From: Acidimicrobiia bacterium
GTDB lineage: Bacteria > Actinomycetota > Acidimicrobiia > Spongiisociales > Spongiisociaceae
DNA length: 64,000 bases
Direction: 5' to 3'
Assembly (NCBI GenBank): GCA_965231815.1
Contig: OZ246890.1
Coordinates: 1,799,469 to 1,863,468, forward strand
Shown here piece by piece: positions 1,124 through 31,100 of this stretch. A program made the position numbers and the translations under genes. The stretch's first letter is position 1. Each line of letters opens with the position of its first letter. The notes below the pieces were generated by a model that was given only the letters and a program-made list of their open reading frames with translations, had not been told where the DNA came from and searched no databases.

Positions 1124-2647
1124 TCAGCCATTGACAGCACTTACGGCGCGGTTGAGGGCTTCGACGAAAGCGTGACCAGAACCTTCGACCACGTCGGTGG
1201 ACACCCCCCGTCCGCTATGGGTGGATCCGCCAACCTGTACTACCACGTTTACCTCCGCCATGGCGTCGGCGCCGGCCGTTACCGGAACCACACGATAGTC
1301 CAGCAGGCTGACGTCAAGGCCGAAAGCCTGCTTGAGAGCGTCAAAAGTGGCGTCAACCATTCCGCCGCCGGTTCCGGTGAACTCCTCGGTCTTGTGGCTA
1401 TCGCCGCTCTCGATAGTGACCGTCGAGGTGGGCGTGGTGTGGCTTCCCCCGCTCACGCTTATGGAAACCATCCGTACCGAGCCATCGGCTTGTGCATACC
1501 CCTGGCTGATGATCGCTCGCAGTTCTCGTTCGTTTATCTCGATCTTCCGGTCGGCCACGTTCTTGAATCGCCGGAAGGCTGCCGCGAACTCCTCGTCCTC
1601 CAACACGATGCCCAGCTTGGAGAGCGCATCTGCGAACCCGGCCCGCCCGGAGTGTTTCCCCAGGACGATCTGGCTGGTTGCTCCGACCGAGATGGGATCG
1701 ATGATTTCGTATGTTTCCCGATCCCGCAGCACCCCGTGCTGATGGATGCCCGACTCGTGGGCGAAGGCGTTCCGACCGACCACCGCCTTATTGAATTGAA
1801 CCGGATAGCCCGTTAGGCGGGATACCAGCCTGCTGGTAGGGACGATCTCTTCCGTGTTGGCGTCGACATCAACCCCGAAGTGGTCCCTCCGGGTTCGGAC
1901 GGCCATGATTATCTCCTCGGTGGAGGTGTTGCCCGCTCGCTCTCCTATACCGTTGATGGCGCCTTCGATCTGGCGGGCGCCCGCGTGGATCGCGGAGAGG
2001 GAGTTGGCGACGGCCAGACCAAGGTCGTTATGGCAATGGGTGGAGACGATAACGTCATCCCTACCCCCTAAAACCTCGTCGTATACCCGGCGTAGCAACT
2101 CCACGTAGTCCTCAGGTGTGGCGAACCCGACAGTGTCTGGGATGTTGATGGTGGTGGCGCCCTCCCGTACCGCGGCATGGCAGCACGCGATCATGAAGTC
2201 AGGGTCGGATCGGGTGGCGTCCTGAGGTGAGAACTCCACGTCGTGGGTGTAGCCGCGAGCTCGACGGACTGACTCGATGATCGAGTTCATAACCTCTCGG
2301 GGGGTCATCCGCAGCATCCGTTCCATGTGGATGGGAGAGGTGCTCTGAAAGACATGGATCCTGTGCCGCTCCGCATGACGCACCGCGTCGTAGGCGCGGT
2401 CGATGTCGTCGGGGTGGCACCGGGCCAGGGAAGCGATTACCGGACCCTTCACCTTTTTCGCGATCTGGGAAACACCGTAGAAGTCACCGTCGGATGCGGC
2501 GGCGAAACCGGCTTCGATGATATCTACTCGGAGCTTGGCCAACTGACGGGCGATGACGAGTTTCTCATCCGGGGTCAGCGCGATTCCCGGCGCTTGTTCG
2601 CCATCGCGAAGGGTGGTGTCGAAGATGATCAGCTTGTCTTGTGGCAT
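1124..2647 (-). CDS. leuA: 2-isopropylmalate synthase / citramalate synthase family (short form)
   Basis: [11 protein letters not shown] and [13 protein letters not shown] motifs; start taken at [15 protein letters not shown] extends to 2710; LeuA versus CimA not resolved. Confidence 0.85.
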
Positions 2648-2770
2648 GGGACTGCTCCGGTCTGCGTGTGGTCTGGAAGTCGGGCGGGATGGGGGAGGGT
2701 ACGCCTCCACAGCCCCTAACGGAGGCCGTGGAGGCCTGTTAGTGCCAGCAACTCGCGCAGAATCGGTCGA

Positions 2771-2886
2771 GGAGGGTGCTGAGAAACCCCGTACAAAGGG
2801 GTTCGCCGGCTAATCAAAGCACCCTGACCAGGTAGTTTCACCATACAGCCAACCCCGCTGGATTCGTTTTTCAGCATTCTCCTAGC
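2771..2886 (+). repeat. Interspersed repeat family A copy A1 (diverged, hybrid core)
   Basis: GGAGGGTGCTGAGAAACCCCGTACAAAGGGGTTC ... GTTTTTCAGCATTCTCCTAG with imperfect terminal inverted repeats; intergenic between ilvC and leuA. Confidence 0.7.
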
Positions 2887-2933
2887 AGAGGCGGAGAACC
2901 TGTGCCCTACCGCAGGCTTGGTGGAAGAAACCA

Positions 2934-3944
2934 TTAGCCGGGCGCCTTCGGAGTGAGGAACGGCATCAAGTCACGGAGCCGGGCGCCGACCTGCTCGATC
3001 TCATGGCTTCGTTCCCGTGCTCTGGTGTCGAGAAGCCGCGGAGCGCCTGCGCGGGCCTCGGTCATCCAGTTGCGAGCGAAAGTTCCGGACCGGATATCCT
3101 CCAGAACGTCCTTCATGACCTTGCGCGTCTCATCGGTAATGATACGGGGACCGGTGGAATAGTCTCCCCATTCGGCGGTGTCGGACACCGAATAGCGCAT
3201 CCACGTCAAGCCGCCCTCGTAGAGGAGGTCAACGATCAACTTCAACTCGTGAAGGGTCTCGAAGTAGGCGGACTCGGGTTGGTACCCGCCCTCGACCAGC
3301 GTCTCGTAAGACGCTTTGATCAACTCGGACAGACCACCGCACAGGATGACCTGCTCCCCGAACAGGTCGGTTTCGGTTTCTTCTTTGAAGGTGGTCTCCA
3401 GCACTCCGGCTCTGGCGCCGCCTATCGCCCATGCGTAGGAGAGGCCGAGTTCATGGCAGGCGCCGGATGAGTCTTGATGCACGGCTAGCAGGCACGGTAC
3501 GCCGGAACCTTCCGTGTAGGTGCGGCGCACTAGGTGTCCCGGACCTTTCGGGGCGACCATCAGAACGTCGAGATCTTTGTCGGGGCTGATCTCACCGAAG
3601 TGGATGTTGAACCCGTGGGCAAACATCAGGGCGTCGCCGTTTTGGAGGTGGGGGGCGATCTCCGCGTGGTATAGGTCGGCGGCGTGCTGGTCAGGTACCA
3701 GGACCATGACTACGTTCGCCCATTCGGAAACCTCCGCTACCGAGGCGACCGCGAGACCTTCGCCCTCGGCTTCCAACCGTCGCCGGGACGTCTCTCTGAG
3801 GCCGACCTTGACCTCCACGCCGGACTCCCGGAGGTTGAGAGCATGCGCATGGCCTTGGCTTCCGTACCCGATTACGGCCACCCGGCGGCTTGATATTACG
3901 GCCGGATCCGCATCGTGGTCGTAGTAGATGGAAGCCATGCTCAC
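2934..3944 (-). CDS. ilvC: Ketol-acid reductoisomerase
   Basis: [17 protein letters not shown] Rossmann motif and IlvC body. Confidence 0.9.
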
Positions 3945-4500: not shown

Positions 4501-6197
4501 AGGTCTTCAGGTCCCGTTAGCACGACGTCGTTGGATCCTCCGGCGGGCACCATCGGGAATACCATCTCATCGCGATCCACCTCGAACTCCACGACCACCG
4601 ATCGGTCTTCGATCTCGAGCATCCGCTTGATCGTGTCGTCGACATCCTCGGGACGGTCGGCCCGCAGCCCCACGCATCCCATAGCTTCAGCAAGCTTGAC
4701 GTAATCAGGGAGGTGTCTGCCTAGGTCGGAGGATGAGAACCGTTCGTTGTAGAACAGGCGTTGCCATTGTCTGACCATGCCATGGGCGCTGTTGTTGAAT
4801 ACGGCTACCTTGATGGGGATCTTCTCTACCGAGGCGGTGATCAGCTCCTGAACGGTCATCTGGAAACACCCGTCACCGTCCACGGCTATCACCTGTTTAT
4901 CAGGTCTACCGGCCTTGGCGCCGATGGCTGCCGGGACTGCGAAGCCCATAGTGCCCAGACCTCCGGAGTTGATCCAGTGCCGAGGTTTGTCGAATCCCCA
5001 GTACTGCGAAGCCCACATCTGATGCTGGCCGACCCCCGAGACTACGATGGAATCCTTGTCGGCCAGTTCCCGCAGGCGGGTAAGCACGAACTGAGGTTTG
5101 ATCGGACCGTCCGGTTCCTGCTCGAACCGGAGAGGATGCGTGTCCTGCCATTCCCGGATGGTTCGCCACCATTTCCGTAGCCTTGGCTTCGGGGTATCAC
5201 CCCAGCGCTCGCAGAATGCTTCCAGTATGCGGCCCGCATCTCCTACGATCGGTACCTCCGGAGTACGCACCTTGCCTATTTCGGCCGGGTCTACGTCCCC
5301 GTGAATCACCTTGGCGAAAGGGGCGAAGGAGTTCGGATCGCCCGTGACCCGATCGTCGAAACGAACCCCGACCGCCACCAGCACGTCCGACTTTTGTATC
5401 GCTGTCGTTGCCGCGTATAGCCCGTGCATGCCGGGCATCCCGAGCGTATTCGGATGGCTGTCGGGAATGGCGCCTCTTCCCATCAGGGTGGTCACGACGG
5501 GCATATTGGTCATTTCGGCGAAGGCCAGGAGAGCAGCCGACGCGTTGGCCTTGATGATCCCACCCCCCACGTACAGGACGGGTTGCTCAGCGCCCTGGAT
5601 CATCCGGACGGCTTCTGCGATCCGGCGCGGATGCGGGTTGACGGTGGGGCGGTAACCGGGCATGGATACCGGACCGGGATCGCTCCACTGCAGGGAGGCG
5701 TTCAGTATGTCCTTCGGTAGGTCGACCAGGACGGGTCCGGGCCGCCCTGTCGAGGCGACATGAAACGCTTCGGCCAAGACCTGTGGAATCTCGTCGGGAT
5801 CGGAGACGAAGTAGTTGTGTTTGGTGGCCGGCATGGTGATACCGGTGGTGTACGCCTCCTGGAAAGCGTCATTTCCCACTGCGTTGGTCGGAACCTGTCC
5901 GGTGATAGCCACCATAGGAACCGAGTCCATCAGCGCATCGGCGAGTGGAGTCACGAGGTTGGTGGCGCCCGGCCCCGACGTGGCGATCGTCACCCCGACT
6001 TTGCCCGTTGCCCAAGCATATCCCTCCGCCATGTGTCCGGCACCCTGTTCGTGACGGGCCAGGATATGGCGAAAACCGGCCTCCAGCATCGGATCGTAGG
6101 CGGGCAGGATGGCGCCGCCGGGAATACCGAACGCTACCTCGACATCCAGGTATTCCAGAGCCTTGATCAGTGCTCCTGCACCGGTGATTGTGCTCAT
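4497..6197 (-). CDS. ilvB: Acetolactate synthase large subunit (TPP-dependent)
   Basis: 566-aa TPP enzyme with typical ALS N-terminus; 4-bp overlap with ilvN start. Confidence 0.9.
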   Translation of the reverse strand: MSTITGAGALIKALEYLDVEVAFGIPGGAILPAYDPMLEAGFRHILARHEQGAGHMAEGYAWATGKVGVTIATSGPGATNLVTPLADALMDSVPMVAITGQVPTNAVGNDAFQEAYTTGITMPATKHNYFVSDPDEIPQVLAEAFHVASTGRPGPVLVDLPKDILNASLQWSDPGPVSMPGYRPTVNPHPRRIAEAVRMIQGAEQPVLYVGGGIIKANASAALLAFAEMTNMPVVTTLMGRGAIPDSHPNTLGMPGMHGLYAATTAIQKSDVLVAVGVRFDDRVTGDPNSFAPFAKVIHGDVDPAEIGKVRTPEVPIVGDAGRILEAFCERWGDTPKPRLRKWWRTIREWQDTHPLRFEQEPDGPIKPQFVLTRLRELADKDSIVVSGVGQHQMWASQYWGFDKPRHWINSGGLGTMGFAVPAAIGAKAGRPDKQVIAVDGDGCFQMTVQELITASVEKIPIKVAVFNNSAHGMVRQWQRLFYNERFSSSDLGRHLPDYVKLAEAMGCVGLRADRPEDVDDTIKRMLEIEDRSVVVEFEVDRDEMVFPMVPAGGSNDVVLTGPEDL

Positions 6198-6248
6198 GGC
6201 AAGTTCCTTACGTGCTGGTTGCTGTGATCGGGACCTGGTTCGTCCTAG

Positions 6249-6341
6249 AAAAAAGCCCTCCGGTATGGAGGGCTTCTAGCGCACATGCCGCGGAGCGACG
6301 GTGCGCTACATAAGTACTAGAACGTGGCGGCCAACAGTCAT
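6249..6341 (-). promoter_or_regulatory. Candidate ilvB leader-peptide attenuator: 11-codon Val/Leu-rich leader ORF (6306-6341) plus GC hairpin and U6 terminator (6249-6273)
   Basis: On the minus strand, ATG ACT GTT GGC CGC CAC GTT CTA GTA CTT ATG TAG (MTVGRHVLVLM) is followed by GCCCTCC-ATACC-GGAGGGC and TTTTTT, ~50 nt upstream of the ilvB ATG. Confidence 0.45.
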
Positions 6342-6529
6342 GATTGGCGCGATTATGGAGGAAATGAGCCGAAATGTCAACCTGCTCGATTCCGTCAATG
6401 ACCAGCCGGGACGGCCATTCGGTCCGCTGCCGCCCTTAGAACGGGATCCCGACCCTGGGTCGGCTACGGGAATCTGCACAGCTTGGGCCGGTGTAGAACC
6501 ATCGAGCAGGATCGCTTTACGATAAGGCA

Positions 6530-23729: not shown

Positions 23730-25676
23730 ATGAGGAATAGAACATTGAACAAGACCACCCGTACCATCATCGTCTACGGGCTCGTGGTTATGGCGTTGGT
23801 CCTGATGGGGCAACGTTTCCTGGGCCAGGCCAACGAGGCGGAGGAGATCGATCTGACGGTCTTCGATGAGGTGGTCAGGTCCGGAGCGGTAGCTGAGGTA
23901 TTGATCCTGGACCGATCCAACGTTATCGAGGGCAAGCTGGAACCGGGCGCCTCGTCACCCGGAATACCGGCCGAGTTCCGCGTGCGGTATACCGAGGAAT
24001 ACGAGGGGATCCTCACGGAGTTGTTGCTATCCAGCGAGGTAAAGGTTCTGATCGATCCCGAACCGCCGGGGTTCTGGGACCTGATTCTGGGCCTTCTTCC
24101 CTGGTTGCTGATCTTCGGGTTCATGATCTTCGTCATCCTGCAGATGCAGAGCGGGGGAAGTCGGATCATGCAGTTCGGCAAGGCGAAGGCCAAACAGGTT
24201 TCAAAGGACCAGCCTAAAGTCACTTTCGAGGATGTGGCCGGTCTCGAGGAGGCCATCGAGGAACTGGGGGAAATCAAAGACTTCTTGCAATCGCCCCAGA
24301 AGTTCCGGGCGATGGGGGCCAAAATCCCGAAAGGGGTCTTGCTGTACGGCTCTCCCGGAACCGGCAAGACCCTACTTTCTCGGGCAGTGGCAGGTGAAGC
24401 GGGGGTTCCGTTCTTCTCGATTTCGGGGTCCGACTTCGTAGAGATGTTCGTAGGAGTTGGCGCAAGTCGGGTACGTGATCTGTTCGAGCAGGCCAAGACG
24501 GCGGCGCCGGCCATCATCTTTATCGATGAGATCGACGCGGTGGGTCGGCACCGGGGGGCCGGATTGGGTGGAGGCCACGATGAAAGGGAGCAAACTCTCA
24601 ATCAGCTACTGGTCGAACTGGACGGTTTCGACGTCTCAAGCGGTGTGATCGTCGTTGCCGGCACCAACCGTCCTGACATCCTGGATCCTGCCCTGCTCCG
24701 CCCGGGACGCTTCGACCGCCAGATCGTAGTGGATAGGCCTGATCTCAGGGGTCGCCGAGCGATCCTCGATGTGCACGCCAAGGGAAAACCCATTTCCGAC
24801 GACGTTGACATGGAGGTGATAGCGCGGCAGACCCCCGGATTTACCGGGGCTGATCTCGCCAACCTGATCAACGAAGCAGCCCTCCTCGCCGCCCGACGAG
24901 ACAAGGAGCAAGTGGGGCCGCCGGAACTCGAGGAGGCGATCGAGAGGGTGATCGCCGGGCCCGAACGTAAGAGCCGGGTAATGACGGACAAGGAGAGGAA
25001 GGTCACCGCCTACCACGAGGGAGGACACGCGTTGGTGGGATTCGCTCTGCCGAACGCCGATCCCATCCACAAGGTCACGATTATTCCCCGCGGCCGGGCA
25101 GGCGGTTACACGCTCGCCCTCCCGACGGAGGACCGTAACTACCTGCGAAGGTCCGAACTCACCGACCAACTTGCCATGCTCATGGGTGGCCGAGCCGCCG
25201 AGGAGCTGATCTTTGCGGATCCGACCACCGGTGCTTCCAACGATATCGAAAAGGCCACCGAGCAGGCTCGCCGCATGGTGATGGAGTACGGCATGAGTGA
25301 CCATCTAGGCCCGATGAAGTACGGGAAGAGCCACGGTGAGGTATTCCTCGGGAGGGACTATTCGAGCCAGCAGGACTATTCCGACGAGGTAGCGGCCGCT
25401 ATCGACGATGAAGTGCGCGCCCTTCTCAACCAGGCTCATGAAGAGGCCAAGCGGATCTTGACCACCCACATCGATTCCCTGCATCGGATGGCTGGCCGCC
25501 TGCTTGACGTGGAGACCCTTAAGGCAGAGGAAATCACGGCTGTCCTACACGACGTACCGAAATGGGAGACCGTGGAGGGGGCCGGTCCACGCATCAAGGC
25601 CCCCCAACTAAGCCCTCTAGCCGTTGCCGAGGGAGTTGCCGCGGCGCGAGCTTCCGACTCTTCGCATTCCGGCTAG
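23730..25676 (+). CDS. ftsH: ATP-dependent zinc metalloprotease FtsH
   Basis: Walker [14 protein letters not shown] body, HEGGHAL zinc motif. Confidence 0.95.
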
Positions 25677-25678
25677 CA

Positions 25679-26262
25679 CCTTGCGCGGCTGGGAGATCGA
25701 CCAGCAAGCGATCGCGGATGCCATGCGCCGGATCCTGGAGGCGATCGGTGAAGATCCGGGTAGGGAGGGTCTTGCGGAGACACCGGAACGGGTGGCGCGT
25801 ATGTACGCGGAGATCTTCGCCGGAATGCATCGTGATCCTCAGGAGCACTTGTATCGGGTCTTCGTGGCCGACGAACATCAGGAGATGGTGCTGGTTCGTG
25901 ACGTGGTGTTCTATTCGATGTGTGAACACCACTTCCTACCCTTCCACGGCAGGACTCATGTCGCCTACGTTCCCGATGGTCGAGTTACCGGTCTTTCCAA
26001 GCTGGCCCGTCTGGTAGAGGGCTTTGCCCGTCGACCTCAGATGCAGGAAAGGTTGACCACACAGGTGGCTGATGCCCTGGTGGAGGTGCTGTCACCGCGC
26101 GGGGTCCTGGTAGTTGTGGAAGCGCGCCACCTGTGCATGGAGATGCGCGGGGTCAAGAAACCCGGCGCCATCACCCAGACCTCAGCGGTCCGAGGTCAGT
26201 TCCGCAAGAGTCATGCAACCCGGGCGGAAGCCTTGGCCTTGATAAACCGGGGGTGGGCTTGA
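25679..26262 (+). CDS. folE: GTP cyclohydrolase I
   Basis: [14 protein letters not shown] and [10 protein letters not shown] motifs; TTG start assumed. Confidence 0.9.
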
Positions 26263-26321
26263 GGCGGCCACGCTGGCATATCCGTGGAGCTGTCCTGGAT
26301 CCAAACCGGGAAACAATCATC

Positions 26322-27143
26322 ATGGGGATCGTCAACGCTACCCCTGACTCCTTCTCGGACGGGGGCCGATTCATGGAGGAGGAGGCTGCTGTCGCCCATG
26401 GCATACGGCTCTTCGAGGAGGGCGCTCATATCGTGGACGTTGGAGGGGAATCCACTCGACCAGGTTCCGCGCCGGTTCCCGAGGAGATCGAGTTGCGCCG
26501 GGTGATCGGGGTGGTGGCCCGTCTAGCCCGATCCGGAGTGCCGGTGTCGATCAACACGTCGAAGCCGAAGGTGGCGGCCGAGGCTGTCGAGGTGGGCGCC
26601 GCGGTGGTGAACGATGTCGAGGCGCTCGAACGGGAGGGTATGGTCGAGATATGTGCCTCTACCGGGGTGGGGGTCGTGTTGATGCACATGCAAGGCGCCC
26701 CTCGGACTATGCAGAGCAATCCTCACTACGACGACGTGGTAGCGGAGGTAGGGGATTACCTCGTAAGACGGATTAGAGTTGCGGAGGCTTCCGGCATCGA
26801 CCGCAAATCGTTGGCCATCGATCCCGGCATCGGATTCGGGAAGACGCTCACCCACAACTTGGCCCTCCTCAACGGTCTAAAGACGCTGGCGGCGGGAGGA
26901 GTGCCGGTTCTGGTAGGCGCTTCCCGCAAAGCGTTTCTCGGCGCCTTGACCGGGCGACCGGTGGAAGAGCGAGACGCCGTAACAGCGGTAGCCTCAGGGA
27001 TTTGTGTGATAAACGGAGCGTCGATCGTTAGGGTTCACGATGCTCGACTTACCCGCGACGCGGTTGCGCTCGCGGACGCGATGGAGCGAGCAAGGGAAGG
27101 AGACAATGAAGACCGGAATGAAGACCGGCTTGCAACCGCGTGA
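26322..27143 (+). CDS. folP: Dihydropteroate synthase
   Basis: MGIVNATPDSFSDGG ... DVGGESTRPG. Confidence 0.9.
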   Translation: MGIVNATPDSFSDGGRFMEEEAAVAHGIRLFEEGAHIVDVGGESTRPGSAPVPEEIELRRVIGVVARLARSGVPVSINTSKPKVAAEAVEVGAAVVNDVEALEREGMVEICASTGVGVVLMHMQGAPRTMQSNPHYDDVVAEVGDYLVRRIRVAEASGIDRKSLAIDPGIGFGKTLTHNLALLNGLKTLAAGGVPVLVGASRKAFLGALTGRPVEERDAVTAVASGICVINGASIVRVHDARLTRDAVALADAMERAREGDNEDRNEDRLATA

Positions 27144-27594
27144 CTTCGCCTGGGTGATCAAGGACAGGCTGGCCACCTCGGCGCGTCCGGGTGGGCAGGG
27201 CTTTCGGCACCGACGGGTACGTCGCCAGGAGGAAATCTCCTGGCTCCTCCAGAACGGGTTCACGTCGGTGGTGTCGCTGCTACCCGGCTCCCAGAATGTA
27301 AAGAACTACGAGGATGCCGGGCTTGGTGTATTCCGAGCGCCGGTCGATGCGGACTCCGAGCCGGAAGAGGTCGAACAGTCCTTCCACACGATCAACAATA
27401 TCCTATCCGTACCCAATTCTCGAGTGCTGGTGCATCGAGACTACGTCGACGACACGGTATCCGGTGTTCTGGCTGGTTATCTGGTCTATTCGGGACTCGT
27501 GAAGGATCAGAGGTTGGCGGCAATCGTTGTTCAAGAGATCGTCGGGCGACCTCTCGGACCCAACGCGCGGTCGCTCATACCGGAGCCCGACTAA
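27106..27594 (+). CDS. Dual-specificity-phosphatase-fold protein lacking the CX5R catalytic loop, inside the folate operon
   Basis: Fold-like pattern VLVHRDYVDDTVSGVLAGYL where DSPs have VHCxAGxxRSG; sits between folP and folB. Confidence 0.5.
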   Translation: MKTGMKTGLQPRDFAWVIKDRLATSARPGGQGFRHRRVRRQEEISWLLQNGFTSVVSLLPGSQNVKNYEDAGLGVFRAPVDADSEPEEVEQSFHTINNILSVPNSRVLVHRDYVDDTVSGVLAGYLVYSGLVKDQRLAAIVVQEIVGRPLGPNARSLIPEPD

Positions 27595-27609: not shown

Positions 27610-27981
27610 ATGGTTGAAGACTCCATCACGCTTCTGGGGCTACGCATCCCGGCTCACCACGGGTTGCTGCCGGAAGAGCGGGTCGAGGGCCAGACCTTTC
27701 TGGTGGATGTGACGGCTTGGCTGGATCTCGCGGAGGCGGGTAAGACCGATGATCTCTCCCACACGCTCGACTACGGATCCTTGGCCGAAGCTATTCACCG
27801 GCGGGTGTCGGGCGAGCGATGGAATCTCATCGAGCGGGTAGCGACGCGGGTGTCTGATCTGGTGCTCGAGGATTGCCGGGTCAGTCGGGTGGAGGTCACG
27901 GTTCACAAACCGGAGGCGCCCATCGCGGTAGGGTTCGAGGACGTGGCGGTGACCATCGTCCGGAGCGCGCCACGAGCCTGA
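27610..27981 (+). CDS. folB: Dihydroneopterin aldolase
   Basis: ITLLGLRIPAHHGLLPEER ... TFLVDV. Confidence 0.85.
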   Translation: MVEDSITLLGLRIPAHHGLLPEERVEGQTFLVDVTAWLDLAEAGKTDDLSHTLDYGSLAEAIHRRVSGERWNLIERVATRVSDLVLEDCRVSRVEVTVHKPEAPIAVGFEDVAVTIVRSAPRA

Positions 27982-27988
27982 GGTCTGC

Positions 27989-28504
27989 GTGGTCCGGGCC
28001 GCTGTGTCGCTGGGTTCCAACATGGGAGACCGCCGCGCCGTCCTGGCTCGGGCGCTCAGCAGCCTTGAAGAGTTGGGCAGGCTGATCTCCGTCTCCGATC
28101 TGTACGAAACCGATCCGGTCGGGCCGATCGATCAGGCGTCCTTTTTAAACGCGGTGGCGGTAATGGAGACCGCTCTAGACGCCGAGACGCTGGTCGAGCG
28201 CCTCTTAGACATCGAGGTGCGGCTGGGCCGAGTCAGGGGTCGCCGCTGGGGGCCGAGGATTATCGATCTGGATCTGATCCTGCATGGCGACACCGTCATC
28301 ACGACGGAGACCGTATCGGTGCCCCATCCCCGCTACCGGGAACGGCGTTTTGTTCTGGAACCGTTGGTAGCGACCTGGCCGGACGCACGCGACCCCGACG
28401 GCACGCCGCTCGCCGATCTGCTGGCCTCGGTAGCCGACCAGAGGGTGGTAGTTCACAAAGGCGACGGTTACCAACTATCCGACTCCACCAAACCTAAGAT
28501 GTAG
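27989..28504 (+). CDS. folK: 2-amino-4-hydroxy-6-hydroxymethyldihydropteridine pyrophosphokinase
   Basis: VSLGSNMGDR ... IIDLDLILHGD ... PHPRYRERRFVLEPL. Confidence 0.85.
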   Translation: MVRAAVSLGSNMGDRRAVLARALSSLEELGRLISVSDLYETDPVGPIDQASFLNAVAVMETALDAETLVERLLDIEVRLGRVRGRRWGPRIIDLDLILHGDTVITTETVSVPHPRYRERRFVLEPLVATWPDARDPDGTPLADLLASVADQRVVVHKGDGYQLSDSTKPKM

Positions 28505-28513
28505 TGTTCAGGG

Positions 28514-30262
28514 ATGAACTTGACCAGCAGCAACATCGAGCGCCGACTGCACCTCGGCGAAGACAGCCGTTGGGAGTTCAAAGCGATTGTCTTCACCGGG
28601 ACAGCGGTCAAAGGCCCACGCCAGCAGGATCTTGCGGATGAATTGTCGGCGTTCGCCAACGGACGAGGAGGGTTCCTTCTGTGCGGCGTAACGGATGACG
28701 GCCGAGTGCAGGGGATGACGCGAGCGCAGATGGACGCTCTGGAGCGGGTGCTGGTCGAAGCGTGCATCTCGTCGGTAAAGCCCTCTATCGACGTGGAGAT
28801 ATCTCGAATGGAGGCTGGTGGCGGGTCGCTCTTGGTGGTTGAAGTTCCGCCGGGGTACGCCCAGCACGACAGCCCGGGCGGCTGCTACCGCCGGGTGGGC
28901 AGTTCCAAACGCAGGATGACCAGCGACCAGTGTCTCCGGCTCGCTCAACAGAGAGGACAGGCCCGGTTTGTATGGTTTGATCGGCAGCCGGTGCCCGGCA
29001 CGGGGATCGAAACCCTGACCCATAGGCTGTGGAAACCATTGATCAGCGCGACAGGCGCCGCGGACACCCTGACGGCTCTCCAAAACCTGCGCCTGCTGGT
29101 CGGAGACGACGGTGACGTGTTGCGGGCGACGGTAGCAGGGATACTGCTGTGTACCGATGATCCGCAACGTTGGTTCCCTAATGCGTCCATAATGGCCACT
29201 CTCTACTCGGGCCGTGATCGAGCCTCCGGGCAGCACGACGCGCAGGAGATCACCGGTCCGCTCCATGAGCAGATCGCCGGGGCGGTACGGTTCGTGTTGC
29301 GCAACATGCGAGTGGCTGCTCGCAAGACACCCGGACGGGTTGACATACCTCAATACAGTATCGAGGCGGTATTCGAGGCCGTGGTGAACGCGGTGGCGCA
29401 CCGCGACTATTCCGTTCAGGGACAACGGATCAGGCTGTCGATGTTCGCGGATCGGCTGGAGATCGACTCACCGGGCGCTCTTCCCAACGGCATGACCATT
29501 GAGAACATGGAGGTCAGCCAATCCACACGAAACGACGTCATTGCGTCGGTCTTCGGGCGGGTTGCCGTAGCCGGCATCCCCGGTTCGCAGAACCGTCAAT
29601 TCCTCATGGAACGCCGAGGTGACGGGGTGGCCGTCATTCTTAGGCGAACCCGGGAGACATCCGGTCGGGATCCGGTTTACCGGCTGATCGACGAGTCCAA
29701 CCTCGGGCTGACTATCCCGGCCGCCTCCCTCGAGTTTGTCCCGGCCCATGCCACCGTCTCGGTTCGATCCTCGGCCGGTCCTCTCCCCGGCGCTGATGTC
29801 CTGATCCTATTCCCGAACAACACCTGGAAACGGGCCGTGACCGGCGAGAACGGGGAGACCACCGTCGCGCTGTACACGACGCATCTGCCCATGAGGGTGT
29901 TCGTAGCAGCCACCGGCTACTCGGCGCATGTGGGTAAGGAATGGATTCCCGGCCGGGGTGGGATGGTTGTTGAGCTTGATGATCTCCCCGCCGGCGGGGC
30001 GGTAATCTTTCCGGAGGGAACCGGATATGTTCCGGGATTGGCAGGGCGATTGAACCCAATCCGCGATGGCCATGACAGAACCTACCTGTACGCGTCCAAC
30101 GTCGCAATCGAGCGGGGACGCCCGCAGCCGGCCCATTTCGTACTCGGGGAAGAACTAAGCCTCACCGACGCCGAAGGCCGGGAGGTGTTGGTTCGTATGG
30201 TTGACATAGCCGGTAGCTCGGCGCTGCTTGAGTACCGGTTTCCGGTTGCTAGCCCTGATTAA
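28514..30262 (+). CDS. Schlafen-like AlbA_2 (divergent AAA) + HATPase_c_4 domain protein with ~190-aa extra C-terminal region
   Basis: N-terminal EFK ... ELSAFANGRGGFLLCGVTDDG; central NAVAHRDYSVQGQRIRLSMFADRLEIDSPGALPNGMT. Confidence 0.7.
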   Translation: MNLTSSNIERRLHLGEDSRWEFKAIVFTGTAVKGPRQQDLADELSAFANGRGGFLLCGVTDDGRVQGMTRAQMDALERVLVEACISSVKPSIDVEISRMEAGGGSLLVVEVPPGYAQHDSPGGCYRRVGSSKRRMTSDQCLRLAQQRGQARFVWFDRQPVPGTGIETLTHRLWKPLISATGAADTLTALQNLRLLVGDDGDVLRATVAGILLCTDDPQRWFPNASIMATLYSGRDRASGQHDAQEITGPLHEQIAGAVRFVLRNMRVAARKTPGRVDIPQYSIEAVFEAVVNAVAHRDYSVQGQRIRLSMFADRLEIDSPGALPNGMTIENMEVSQSTRNDVIASVFGRVAVAGIPGSQNRQFLMERRGDGVAVILRRTRETSGRDPVYRLIDESNLGLTIPAASLEFVPAHATVSVRSSAGPLPGADVLILFPNNTWKRAVTGENGETTVALYTTHLPMRVFVAATGYSAHVGKEWIPGRGGMVVELDDLPAGGAVIFPEGTGYVPGLAGRLNPIRDGHDRTYLYASNVAIERGRPQPAHFVLGEELSLTDAEGREVLVRMVDIAGSSALLEYRFPVASPD

Positions 30263-30287: not shown

Positions 30288-31100
30288 GTGCGAATAGTTG
30301 TCGTAGGGCCCGGGCGGGCCGGAGGCTCGGTGGCGGTGGCGGCCCGGATGGCCGGTCACGATGTGGTCGGGGTATACGCCCGGAGAAAAGACGCCACCGA
30401 TGTCGCCGATCACCTCGGATTGACCACCACGCTGGTGGGAGAGACCATGCCGGAGGCCGATCTCATCGTGGTGGCGGTGTCCGATGACGCCATCCGGCCG
30501 GTGGCGAAGGAAATCTCGCCGGGTGCGGCGGCGGTCCCGAGGGCGGTGCATCTGTCGGGTCTCGCTTCCCTGGAAGTTCTGGATCCCTTGCGGCGGATAG
30601 GCTTGCAAGTCGGCGCCTTCCATCCTCTCCAAACCCTTCCCGATTGGCGCACCGGCGGCGCCTCCCTGAGCGGATCCTTCGTAGGAATAACGGCGGAAGA
30701 TGATCTTGCGGAGTTTCTCGATCGGTTGGCGGTCTCGCTCGGATGTAGCCCCGTGCGGATCTCCGAGGAGATGAAGCCCCTGTATCACGCGGCGTCGGCG
30801 GCGGCTTCCTACTACGTCGCTACGGCTCTGGCTATCTCCGAGGCGCTCTACTCGAAAGCAGGCGTGAACTTGGAAGTGGCCCGGCCCCTGACCGGGCACG
30901 CAGTGGGGAACGCGTTCGACTTGGGCGCTACGCATTCTTTGACCGGCCCGATTGTCAGGGGAGACATCGGCACGGTACGCGATCAATTGGAAGCTGTAGA
31001 CCAGCATGCGCCTCATCTGTCGGAGGCCTTCCGGGCCTTCGCTCGCGCCACGGCGGGGTTGGTAAGCACCGACGAGTTATTGAAGGATGTACTGGCATGA
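30288..31100 (+). CDS. Rossmann-fold DUF2520-like protein, conserved neighbour of panC
   Basis: MRIVVVGPGRAGGSVAVAA NAD(P)-binding N-terminus. Confidence 0.6.
   Translation: MRIVVVGPGRAGGSVAVAARMAGHDVVGVYARRKDATDVADHLGLTTTLVGETMPEADLIVVAVSDDAIRPVAKEISPGAAAVPRAVHLSGLASLEVLDPLRRIGLQVGAFHPLQTLPDWRTGGASLSGSFVGITAEDDLAEFLDRLAVSLGCSPVRISEEMKPLYHAASAAASYYVATALAISEALYSKAGVNLEVARPLTGHAVGNAFDLGATHSLTGPIVRGDIGTVRDQLEAVDQHAPHLSEAFRAFARATAGLVSTDELLKDVLA

Follow-up and report, generated by a model that had tools for sequence, protein, structure and literature searches.

Atypical dual-specificity phosphatases (DSPs) of the DUSP23/VHZ type, for which human VHZ (PDB 4erc), SsoPTP of Sulfolobus (2dxp), Tk-PTP of Thermococcus (5z5b) and PDB entry 25xa serve as our comparators, share the fold of the superfamily of protein tyrosine phosphatases (PTPs). 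The same fold is known without the catalytic cysteine from STYX, the inactive myotubularins, LSF1, tensin and auxilin, which are binders or scaffolds, and to our knowledge all such Cys-less proteins are non-catalytic. PRL phosphatases act by binding CNNM through their active site. Here, we studied gene X, located at positions 27106 to 27594 of a 64,000-nucleotide stretch (the window) of contig OZ246890.1 from an Acidimicrobiia bacterium of the Spongiisociaceae. X encodes a Cys-less relative of DUSP23 within a folP-X-folB-folK operon. That is, like the pseudophosphatases it combines the phosphatase fold predicted for it with an inactivated signature that is maintained by selection, and its setting resembles that of FolQ, which is encoded inside the folate cluster folKEPQC of Lactococcus lactis (PMC1971073). 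Our preferred, still tentative reading is that X serves the pterin branch of the folate pathway as a pseudophosphatase-type component.

X descends from a DUSP23/VHZ-like atypical dual-specificity phosphatase. The alignment of the X family with 20 canonical DUSP23-like proteins by hhalign has a probability of 98.8% (E=7.5e-17). PDB 25xa is the one solved structure found by sequence search (E=6e-5 for the single sequence, E=2.5e-6 for the profile); its 124 aligned residues, used as query, are 99% identical to the 'dual specificity protein phosphatase 23' of Candidatus Chlorohelix. The alignment of X with 25xa is gap-free across the P-loop (VLVHRDYVDDTVSG vs. VLIHCRAGYGRTG), and the P-loop remnant of X aligns without gaps to HCRAGYGRTG. 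The AlphaFold2 (AF2) model of X, built from 38 homologues, reaches a predicted local distance difference test score (pLDDT) of 89.5 and a predicted template modelling score of 0.85, with a pLDDT of 88.9 for a second AF2 model. Searched with Foldseek, the model retrieves VHZ/DUSP23 (E=3e-8), followed by baculovirus RNA 5'-phosphatase, Tk-PTP, Cdc14 and Siw14. At the level of structure prediction, the PTP/DSP alpha/beta fold of X is confirmed. The initial annotation had proposed a dual-specificity phosphatase fold for X from its sequence pattern, to be checked by structure prediction; AF2, Foldseek and hhalign agree on such a fold.

Domain models do not recover this relationship. X has no Pfam match at E-values up to 1 and no NCBIfam match up to 10, HD models and Pfam NUDIX included, and none of the Pfam phosphatase models, among them DSPc, Tc-R-P and PTP-SAK, reaches its threshold with X. 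Sub-threshold matches to DSP-type Pfam models were found in 6/48 members of the X family. No description of the family was found in our literature searches, and there is no curated Pfam or NCBIfam model for it.

Two further proteins were considered as X relatives and rejected. A membrane-anchored canonical phosphatase (loop CAAGVGRTG; Pfam PTP-NADK, PTP-SAK and Tc-R-P), which adjoins coaX/lysS in some folP-X-folK loci (L083, 13578-14213, minus strand; L086, 7179-7808, minus strand), is ruled out by a BLASTP E-value of 13. The 2,437-residue protein P0231, with nine matched stretches, was discarded as its match is to PKD-like repeats.

The catalytic residues of the ancestor are gone. We assessed this in an alignment of 294 X family members, using the numbering of the window protein and counting +n from H110. 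At the nucleophile position (111), Cys is present in 0/294 members; the residues found are R (130), Q (55), G (45), A (32) and H (10), as well as S. The general-acid Asp, which is invariant in the canonical group, aligns to Ala82 of X, whose neighbours 81 and 83 are variable within the family. The position of the P-loop Arg (+7) is occupied by Thr117 in the window protein, and the Arg is absent from its subfamily. Within the family, two subfamilies with no more than about 40% identity to each other can be told apart, i.e., subfamily A (that of the window; loop H-R-[DE]-x-[VI]-D-D-x; 429 database clusters) and subfamily B (loop H-x-[ED]-E-x-G-D-R; 4,021 database clusters, the few named ones coming from metagenome-assembled genomes (MAGs) of Acidimicrobiales and Actinobacteria). 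All contigs on which the family was seen are of Acidimicrobiia type. A basic residue is found at +1 in 133/294 and at +7 in 110/294 members, never at both and at neither in 51/294. This split follows the two subfamilies, with the basic +7 residue confined to subfamily B. Compared to the DUSP23/VHZ-like proteins, X is thus without the Cys nucleophile, the conserved general-acid Asp and (in subfamily A) the P-loop Arg, while its loop is acidic and an HRRVRR motif is added.

The P-loop without catalytic Cys and Arg that the initial annotation had pointed out is therefore borne out by R111 and T117 of the window protein, and its suggestion of either a pseudophosphatase or a different chemistry follows from these two absences. 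Going by the encoded residues, thiol-based phosphate transfer by X is excluded. Since three defining catalytic features are missing, X should not be filed as a phosphatase despite its homology to DUSP23.

Conservation is found elsewhere in the protein. HRRVRR is a 6-residue insertion with respect to 25xa and the canonical DUSP23-like proteins, and its residues are nearly invariant among the 294 members (H35 in 290, R36 in 293, R39 in 294 and R40 in 293). The peak of conservation is the N-terminal third (G8, P11, R12, F14, W16, R27, G29, G30, H35, R36, V38, R39, R40, E42, E43 and W46), beyond which N64, Y68, P79, R148 and R155 are conserved. Within the P-loop remnant, H110, an acidic residue at +2 (96%), D116 (94%) and G120 are conserved family-wide; four positions vary freely, and most of the remnant is variable across the family. 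In a set of 84 X sequences sharing less than 70% identity, 29 positions are at least 85% conserved. The conserved positions map to the N-terminal third and to the loops that strands 2, 3, 4 and 5 lead into. Given the known topology of the fold, in which the loops after strands 2-5 open on the active-site face, the conserved residues would come together in one rebuilt site where the active site once lay. In STYX-type proteins, phospho-ligands are bound at the P-loop, whose Arg is usually retained, whereas X acidifies the loop and adds a basic motif beside it.

A pattern scan with one genome per species identified at least 541 species genomes with an X relative, and gene order was derived from the best 80 loci (L numbers denote loci throughout). 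Most of these loci are labelled as Acidimicrobiia or Acidimicrobiaceae MAGs, including the sponge-associated Candidatus Spongiisociaceae; the remaining labels are Actinomycetota, Acidobacteriota, Kiloniellales and 'uncultured bacterium'. For the same loci, the median identity to the respective window protein is 54% for X, 54% for FolP, 54% for FolB and 47% for FolK. X is a real protein under purifying selection and not a pseudogene. The loss of the catalytic motif alone would also fit a decaying, functionless relic of a phosphatase gene. Against this stand thousands of intact homologues in at least 541 species, a divergence rate equal to that of the neighbouring enzymes and the 29 strongly conserved positions. 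We therefore regard the relic as excluded by the conservation data and leave it next to no probability.

About 1/10 of the listed subfamily-B members (P0128, P0137, P0144, P0272-P0277, P0282, P0288 and P0295) carry long C-terminal tails rich in Lys, Ala and Pro, with a weak match to the histone H1-like HC2 model (PF07382).

The features of the locus are as follows, all on the plus strand of the window.

23730 to 25676: ftsH, an open reading frame of 648 residues, upstream member of the conserved block
25624 to 26262: folE, GTP cyclohydrolase I (Pfam PF01227, E=1.6e-76), exact start uncertain
26253 to 27143: folP, dihydropteroate synthase (Pfam PF00809, E=1.4e-79)
27097 to 27102: AAGGAG, a Shine-Dalgarno-like motif before the X start, as read from the sequence
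27106 to 27594: X, Cys-less DUSP23-like protein with predicted phosphatase fold, 162 residues (or 158 residues from ATG 27118)
27106 to 27129: 12-bp tandem duplication at the 5' end of X (MKTG-MKTG; ATGAAGACCGGA/ATGAAGACCGGC), not shared by the homologues, from sequence and homologue alignment
27208 to 27225: codons of H35-R-R-V-R-R40 at the start of helix 1, a family-specific insertion and the most conserved motif of the family
27430 to 27465: P-loop remnant V109-H-R-D-Y-V-D-D-T-V-S-G120, in which R111 replaces the Cys and T117 the Arg
27610 to 27981: folB, dihydroneopterin aldolase (Pfam PF02152, E=1.4e-36)
27989 to 28504: folK, hydroxymethyl-dihydropterin pyrophosphokinase (HPPK; Pfam PF01288, E=7.1e-37)

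FolE, FolP, FolB and FolK are securely and unambiguously identified in the window. folP probably starts at GTG 26253 or TTG 26259 and overlaps the stop of folE; its Pfam domain begins at 26322, and about 24 residues precede the MGI(V/L)N motif in FolP homologues. For ftsH, tblastn places orthologues (with Pfam AAA/Peptidase_M41) upstream in most related loci.

The longest open reading frame in the frame of X spans 27040-27594, with the stop at 27592-27594. All X homologues begin with M-x-TGLKPR in the alignment, so that X starts at ATG 27106 or ATG 27118, i.e., in one of the two copies of the 12-bp duplication. In the closest homologues (92% and 85% identity) the repeat unit occurs once, so that the true start may be 27118. 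Hence, the start at 27106 given in the initial annotation stands as a possible ATG with an upstream AAGGAG, but ATG 27118 is also allowed by the duplication. The coordinates confirm that X overlaps the folP stop (TGA 27141-27143; by 38 nt from ATG 27106 or 26 nt from ATG 27118) and precedes folB, whose ATG at 27610 follows the end of X after 15 nt. The base composition of X is that of its neighbours (GC content at third codon positions of 0.71). On the plus strand, no promoter-like or terminator-like site is found inside the operon, and an Rfam scan yields no riboswitch or other Rfam family within it.

Downstream of folK, the window holds a 582-residue gene (28514-30262, plus strand; Schlafen AlbA_2 and HATPase_c_4) before the DUF2520 gene (30288-31100). 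Those related loci that were inspected (e.g., L082 and L083) have DUF2520 or panC directly after folK. The AlbA_2/HATPase_c_4 gene looks like an insertion, although its GC content is not deviant.

Among the best 80 loci, the order ftsH-folE-folP-X-folB-folK is found in 41 and folP-X-folK without folE and folB in 23; X is without folP in 8, folB alone is missing in 1, and 1 locus has ftsH-X without any fol gene. With folP upstream in 72/80 loci, the start of X lies mostly at -26 to +12 nt from the folP stop. On the other side, a 4-nt overlap joins the X stop to the folB start in 34/55 loci, and the folK start is at -4 to +9 nt in 21/24. Either folB or folK adjoins X in 79/80 loci. An independent sample of subfamily B, i.e., 80 Joint Genome Institute (JGI) metagenome contigs with counts taken from loci with enough flank, gives similar numbers: folP is directly upstream in 56/58 and folB directly downstream in 66/72 loci, and folB or folK adjoins X in about 67/72. 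On long contigs, Pfam-labelled gene calls show this fol-X arrangement as well. In L091, X-folB-folK is relocated together, apart from ftsH, folE and folP. The motifs of X are equally intact in every cluster architecture.

The gene arrangement argues that X is made with FolP and FolB/FolK from one message, which is probably translationally coupled. Co-expression with folate synthesis, as suggested in the initial annotation from the position of the gene, fits the stop/start overlaps on both sides and an arrangement seen in 79/80 loci from genomes and, where the flank was long enough, in about 90% of those from metagenomes. A survey of the operon in relatives had been proposed along with it; X is present there.

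Apparent fusions (FolP-X, FolP-X-FolB and TilS-X) were inspected as possible Rosetta-stone evidence and rejected, as their garbled inter-domain sequence points to frameshifted read-through.

The 23 loci of the folP-X-folK class, with no folE or folB nearby, are L012, L023, L030, L041, L048, L050, L052, L054-L057, L062-L064, L068, L070, L072-L076, L078 and L079. FolB of the window's close relatives has a Clp_N double repeat at its N-terminus (L017, 5480-6340; L001, about 5500-6417; L002-L004, L020, L027 and L031); one such Clp_N-FolB protein of 286 residues matches Pfam Clp_N with E=4e-30 and FolB with E=9e-37. The window FolB is without Clp_N. An extra segment of about 1.5 kb occurs between folE and folP in L090 (5684-7123, minus strand), where it holds a 479-residue gene without Pfam match, and between ftsH and folE in L008, L009, L011 and similar loci (about 2000-3500).

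X could also have a role that is not specific to folate, e.g., as a regulator or binder of a polyanion (nucleic acid or polyphosphate), and could owe its place in the fol cluster only to an early insertion into a gene block with deep conservation across Actinobacteria. The ftsH-to-lysS block (tilS-hpt-ftsH-fol-panC-coaX-lysS) is indeed syntenic regardless of X. Solitary, intact X genes beside ftsH or tilS with no fol gene near (L080, L107, L113 and L136) favour this view, as do the retention of X while folE, folB or folP come and go, and the histone-H1-like tails in subfamily B. What such a role leaves aside are the stop/start overlaps with fol genes on both sides in most loci, the cohesion of X-folB-folK after the L091 rearrangement, and an adjacency to folB/folK of 79/80 and 67/72 across subfamilies sharing about 40% identity. 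We consider a role outside folate synthesis unlikely.

In two of the solitary loci (L107, 2097-3686; L113, 1888-2694), X is followed by fpg/mutM, and in L107 by a Nudix hydrolase gene after that.

The position of X also bears on a catalytic alternative. Like FolQ/NudB (Nudix) and the FolQ2 candidate (HDIG), X is small, clustered with fol genes, which is the context used as a criterion in PMC1971073, and located just before folB. By position, it is thus a candidate for the FolQ/NudB step. The initial annotation, which hinted at such a role for X, had noted that the dihydroneopterin triphosphate (DHNTP) pyrophosphatase step is unassigned in many actinobacteria; this agrees with PMC1971073, according to which most bacteria have no gene assigned to this step, which lies between those of GTP cyclohydrolase and dihydroneopterin aldolase. 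X would then be a Cys-independent, probably metal-assisted phosphohydrolase that takes pyrophosphate or phosphate off 7,8-dihydroneopterin triphosphate or monophosphate, i.e., the acidimicrobial counterpart in function of Nudix FolQ/NudB. The triphosphate would be bound by Arg and His residues, with Mg2+ or Mn2+ held and water activated by E42/E43, D/E112 and D116. In contrast to FolQ/NudB, X has an unrelated (PTP) fold, and no Nudix box (GX5EX7REUXEEXGU) is present in the window. Scanning the window and 171 loci, we found no Nudix-box gene at a distance of up to about 5 kb from the fol genes in 170/171, the sole gene being that of L107; this is compatible with the phosphohydrolase and says little either way.

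Several observations speak for such an enzyme. X lies directly upstream of folB, and FolB acts on the dephosphorylated product; the fold includes enzymes acting on tri- and pyrophosphates, with baculovirus RNA 5'-phosphatase, PIR1/DUSP11 and Siw14 among the structural matches; and the family has many invariant Arg/His and conserved acidic residues. They are opposed by the loss of the nucleophile, the general acid and the subfamily-A P-loop Arg, together with four freely variable loop positions, and by a conservation that is concentrated in the N-terminal third and not in the P-loop. We know of no precedent for catalysis on the PTP fold without Cys. Furthermore, X stays intact in the 23/80 clusters without adjacent folE and folB and in the four solitary loci. 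This argument is weakened since it covers the locus flanks only, i.e., folE/folB or bypass enzymes may lie elsewhere in the genome. The neighbourhoods of the two canonical Cys-containing relatives checked (one Chloroflexota, one archaeal contig) are unrelated to folate and show no sign of an ancestral pterin-phosphatase role; the folate link may thus be specific to the Cys-less family. In addition, unspecific enzymes can perform the step (PMC1971073). Overall, a Cys-independent phosphohydrolase is a possible but not a probable identity for X, and we are slightly more doubtful still that X truly hydrolyses dihydroneopterin triphosphate or monophosphate by means of Arg/His and acidic residues, probably with a metal ion.

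This leads back to the reading that we favour, at somewhat less than even likelihood, in which X would act in the pterin branch as a binding or accessory protein of pseudophosphatase type for FolK, FolB or FolP. The two-sided translational coupling, the co-migration with folB-folK and the enzyme-like constraint together suggest a dedicated component of this branch. Six to eight Arg/His, contributed mainly by the insertion and placed beside the acidified loop, suggest an anionic ligand or an acidic partner surface. The pathway offers DHNTP, hydroxymethyl-dihydropterin pyrophosphate, ATP, GTP and pyrophosphate as anions. In the proposed mechanism, a non-catalytic X would bind within the pterin branch via the rebuilt former active-site face, where R27, G29-G30, H35-R36-R37-V-R39-R40 and E42-E43 would flank the acidified P-loop remnant (H110, D/E112, D116). 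The candidate ligand would be a pterin di- or triphosphate, e.g., hydroxymethyl-dihydropterin pyrophosphate or dihydroneopterin triphosphate; alternatively, the face may match a complementary surface of FolK, FolB or FolP. X might thereby protect or hand over an intermediate, or modulate FolK, FolB or FolP.

Compared to the eukaryotic pseudophosphatases (STYX, MK-STYX, inactive myotubularin-related proteins, plant LSF1, tensin and auxilin), X is bacterial and encoded in a metabolic operon; for a paired active paralogue of X we found no evidence. PRL phosphatases bound to the CBS domains of CNNM (PDB 8ct8) differ in that they retain the Cys and a weak activity, and their partner and pathway are unrelated to X.

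We infer both the absence of catalysis in X and the identity of its ligand or partner, and several points count against a pseudophosphatase of the pterin branch. The ligand and the partner named above are hypothetical, and the single pocket is deduced from fold topology, not from coordinates. A metal-dependent hydrolase would account equally well for so dense a set of invariant Arg, His, Asp and Glu residues. No genuine domain fusion of X with Fol enzymes was found among the apparent fusions inspected, and a few loci carry X without a fol neighbour.

Folate synthesis is a classical drug-targeted pathway, and Acidimicrobiia are abundant in soils, oceans, sponges and activated sludge. Throughout this class, folP-X-folB-folK contains an extra, unannotated and strongly conserved protein. 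X represents a new family that calls for annotation, and its setting, a vitamin-biosynthesis operon in bacteria throughout one class, is unusual. If X turned out to be catalytic, it would fill the missing folQ-type gene for a class of Actinobacteria and add a new catalytic mechanism to the PTP superfamily. If it is non-catalytic, X would be, as far as we know, the first bacterial pseudophosphatase that serves a biosynthetic operon, which would hint at a complex, or at the handling of intermediates, around FolK and FolP.

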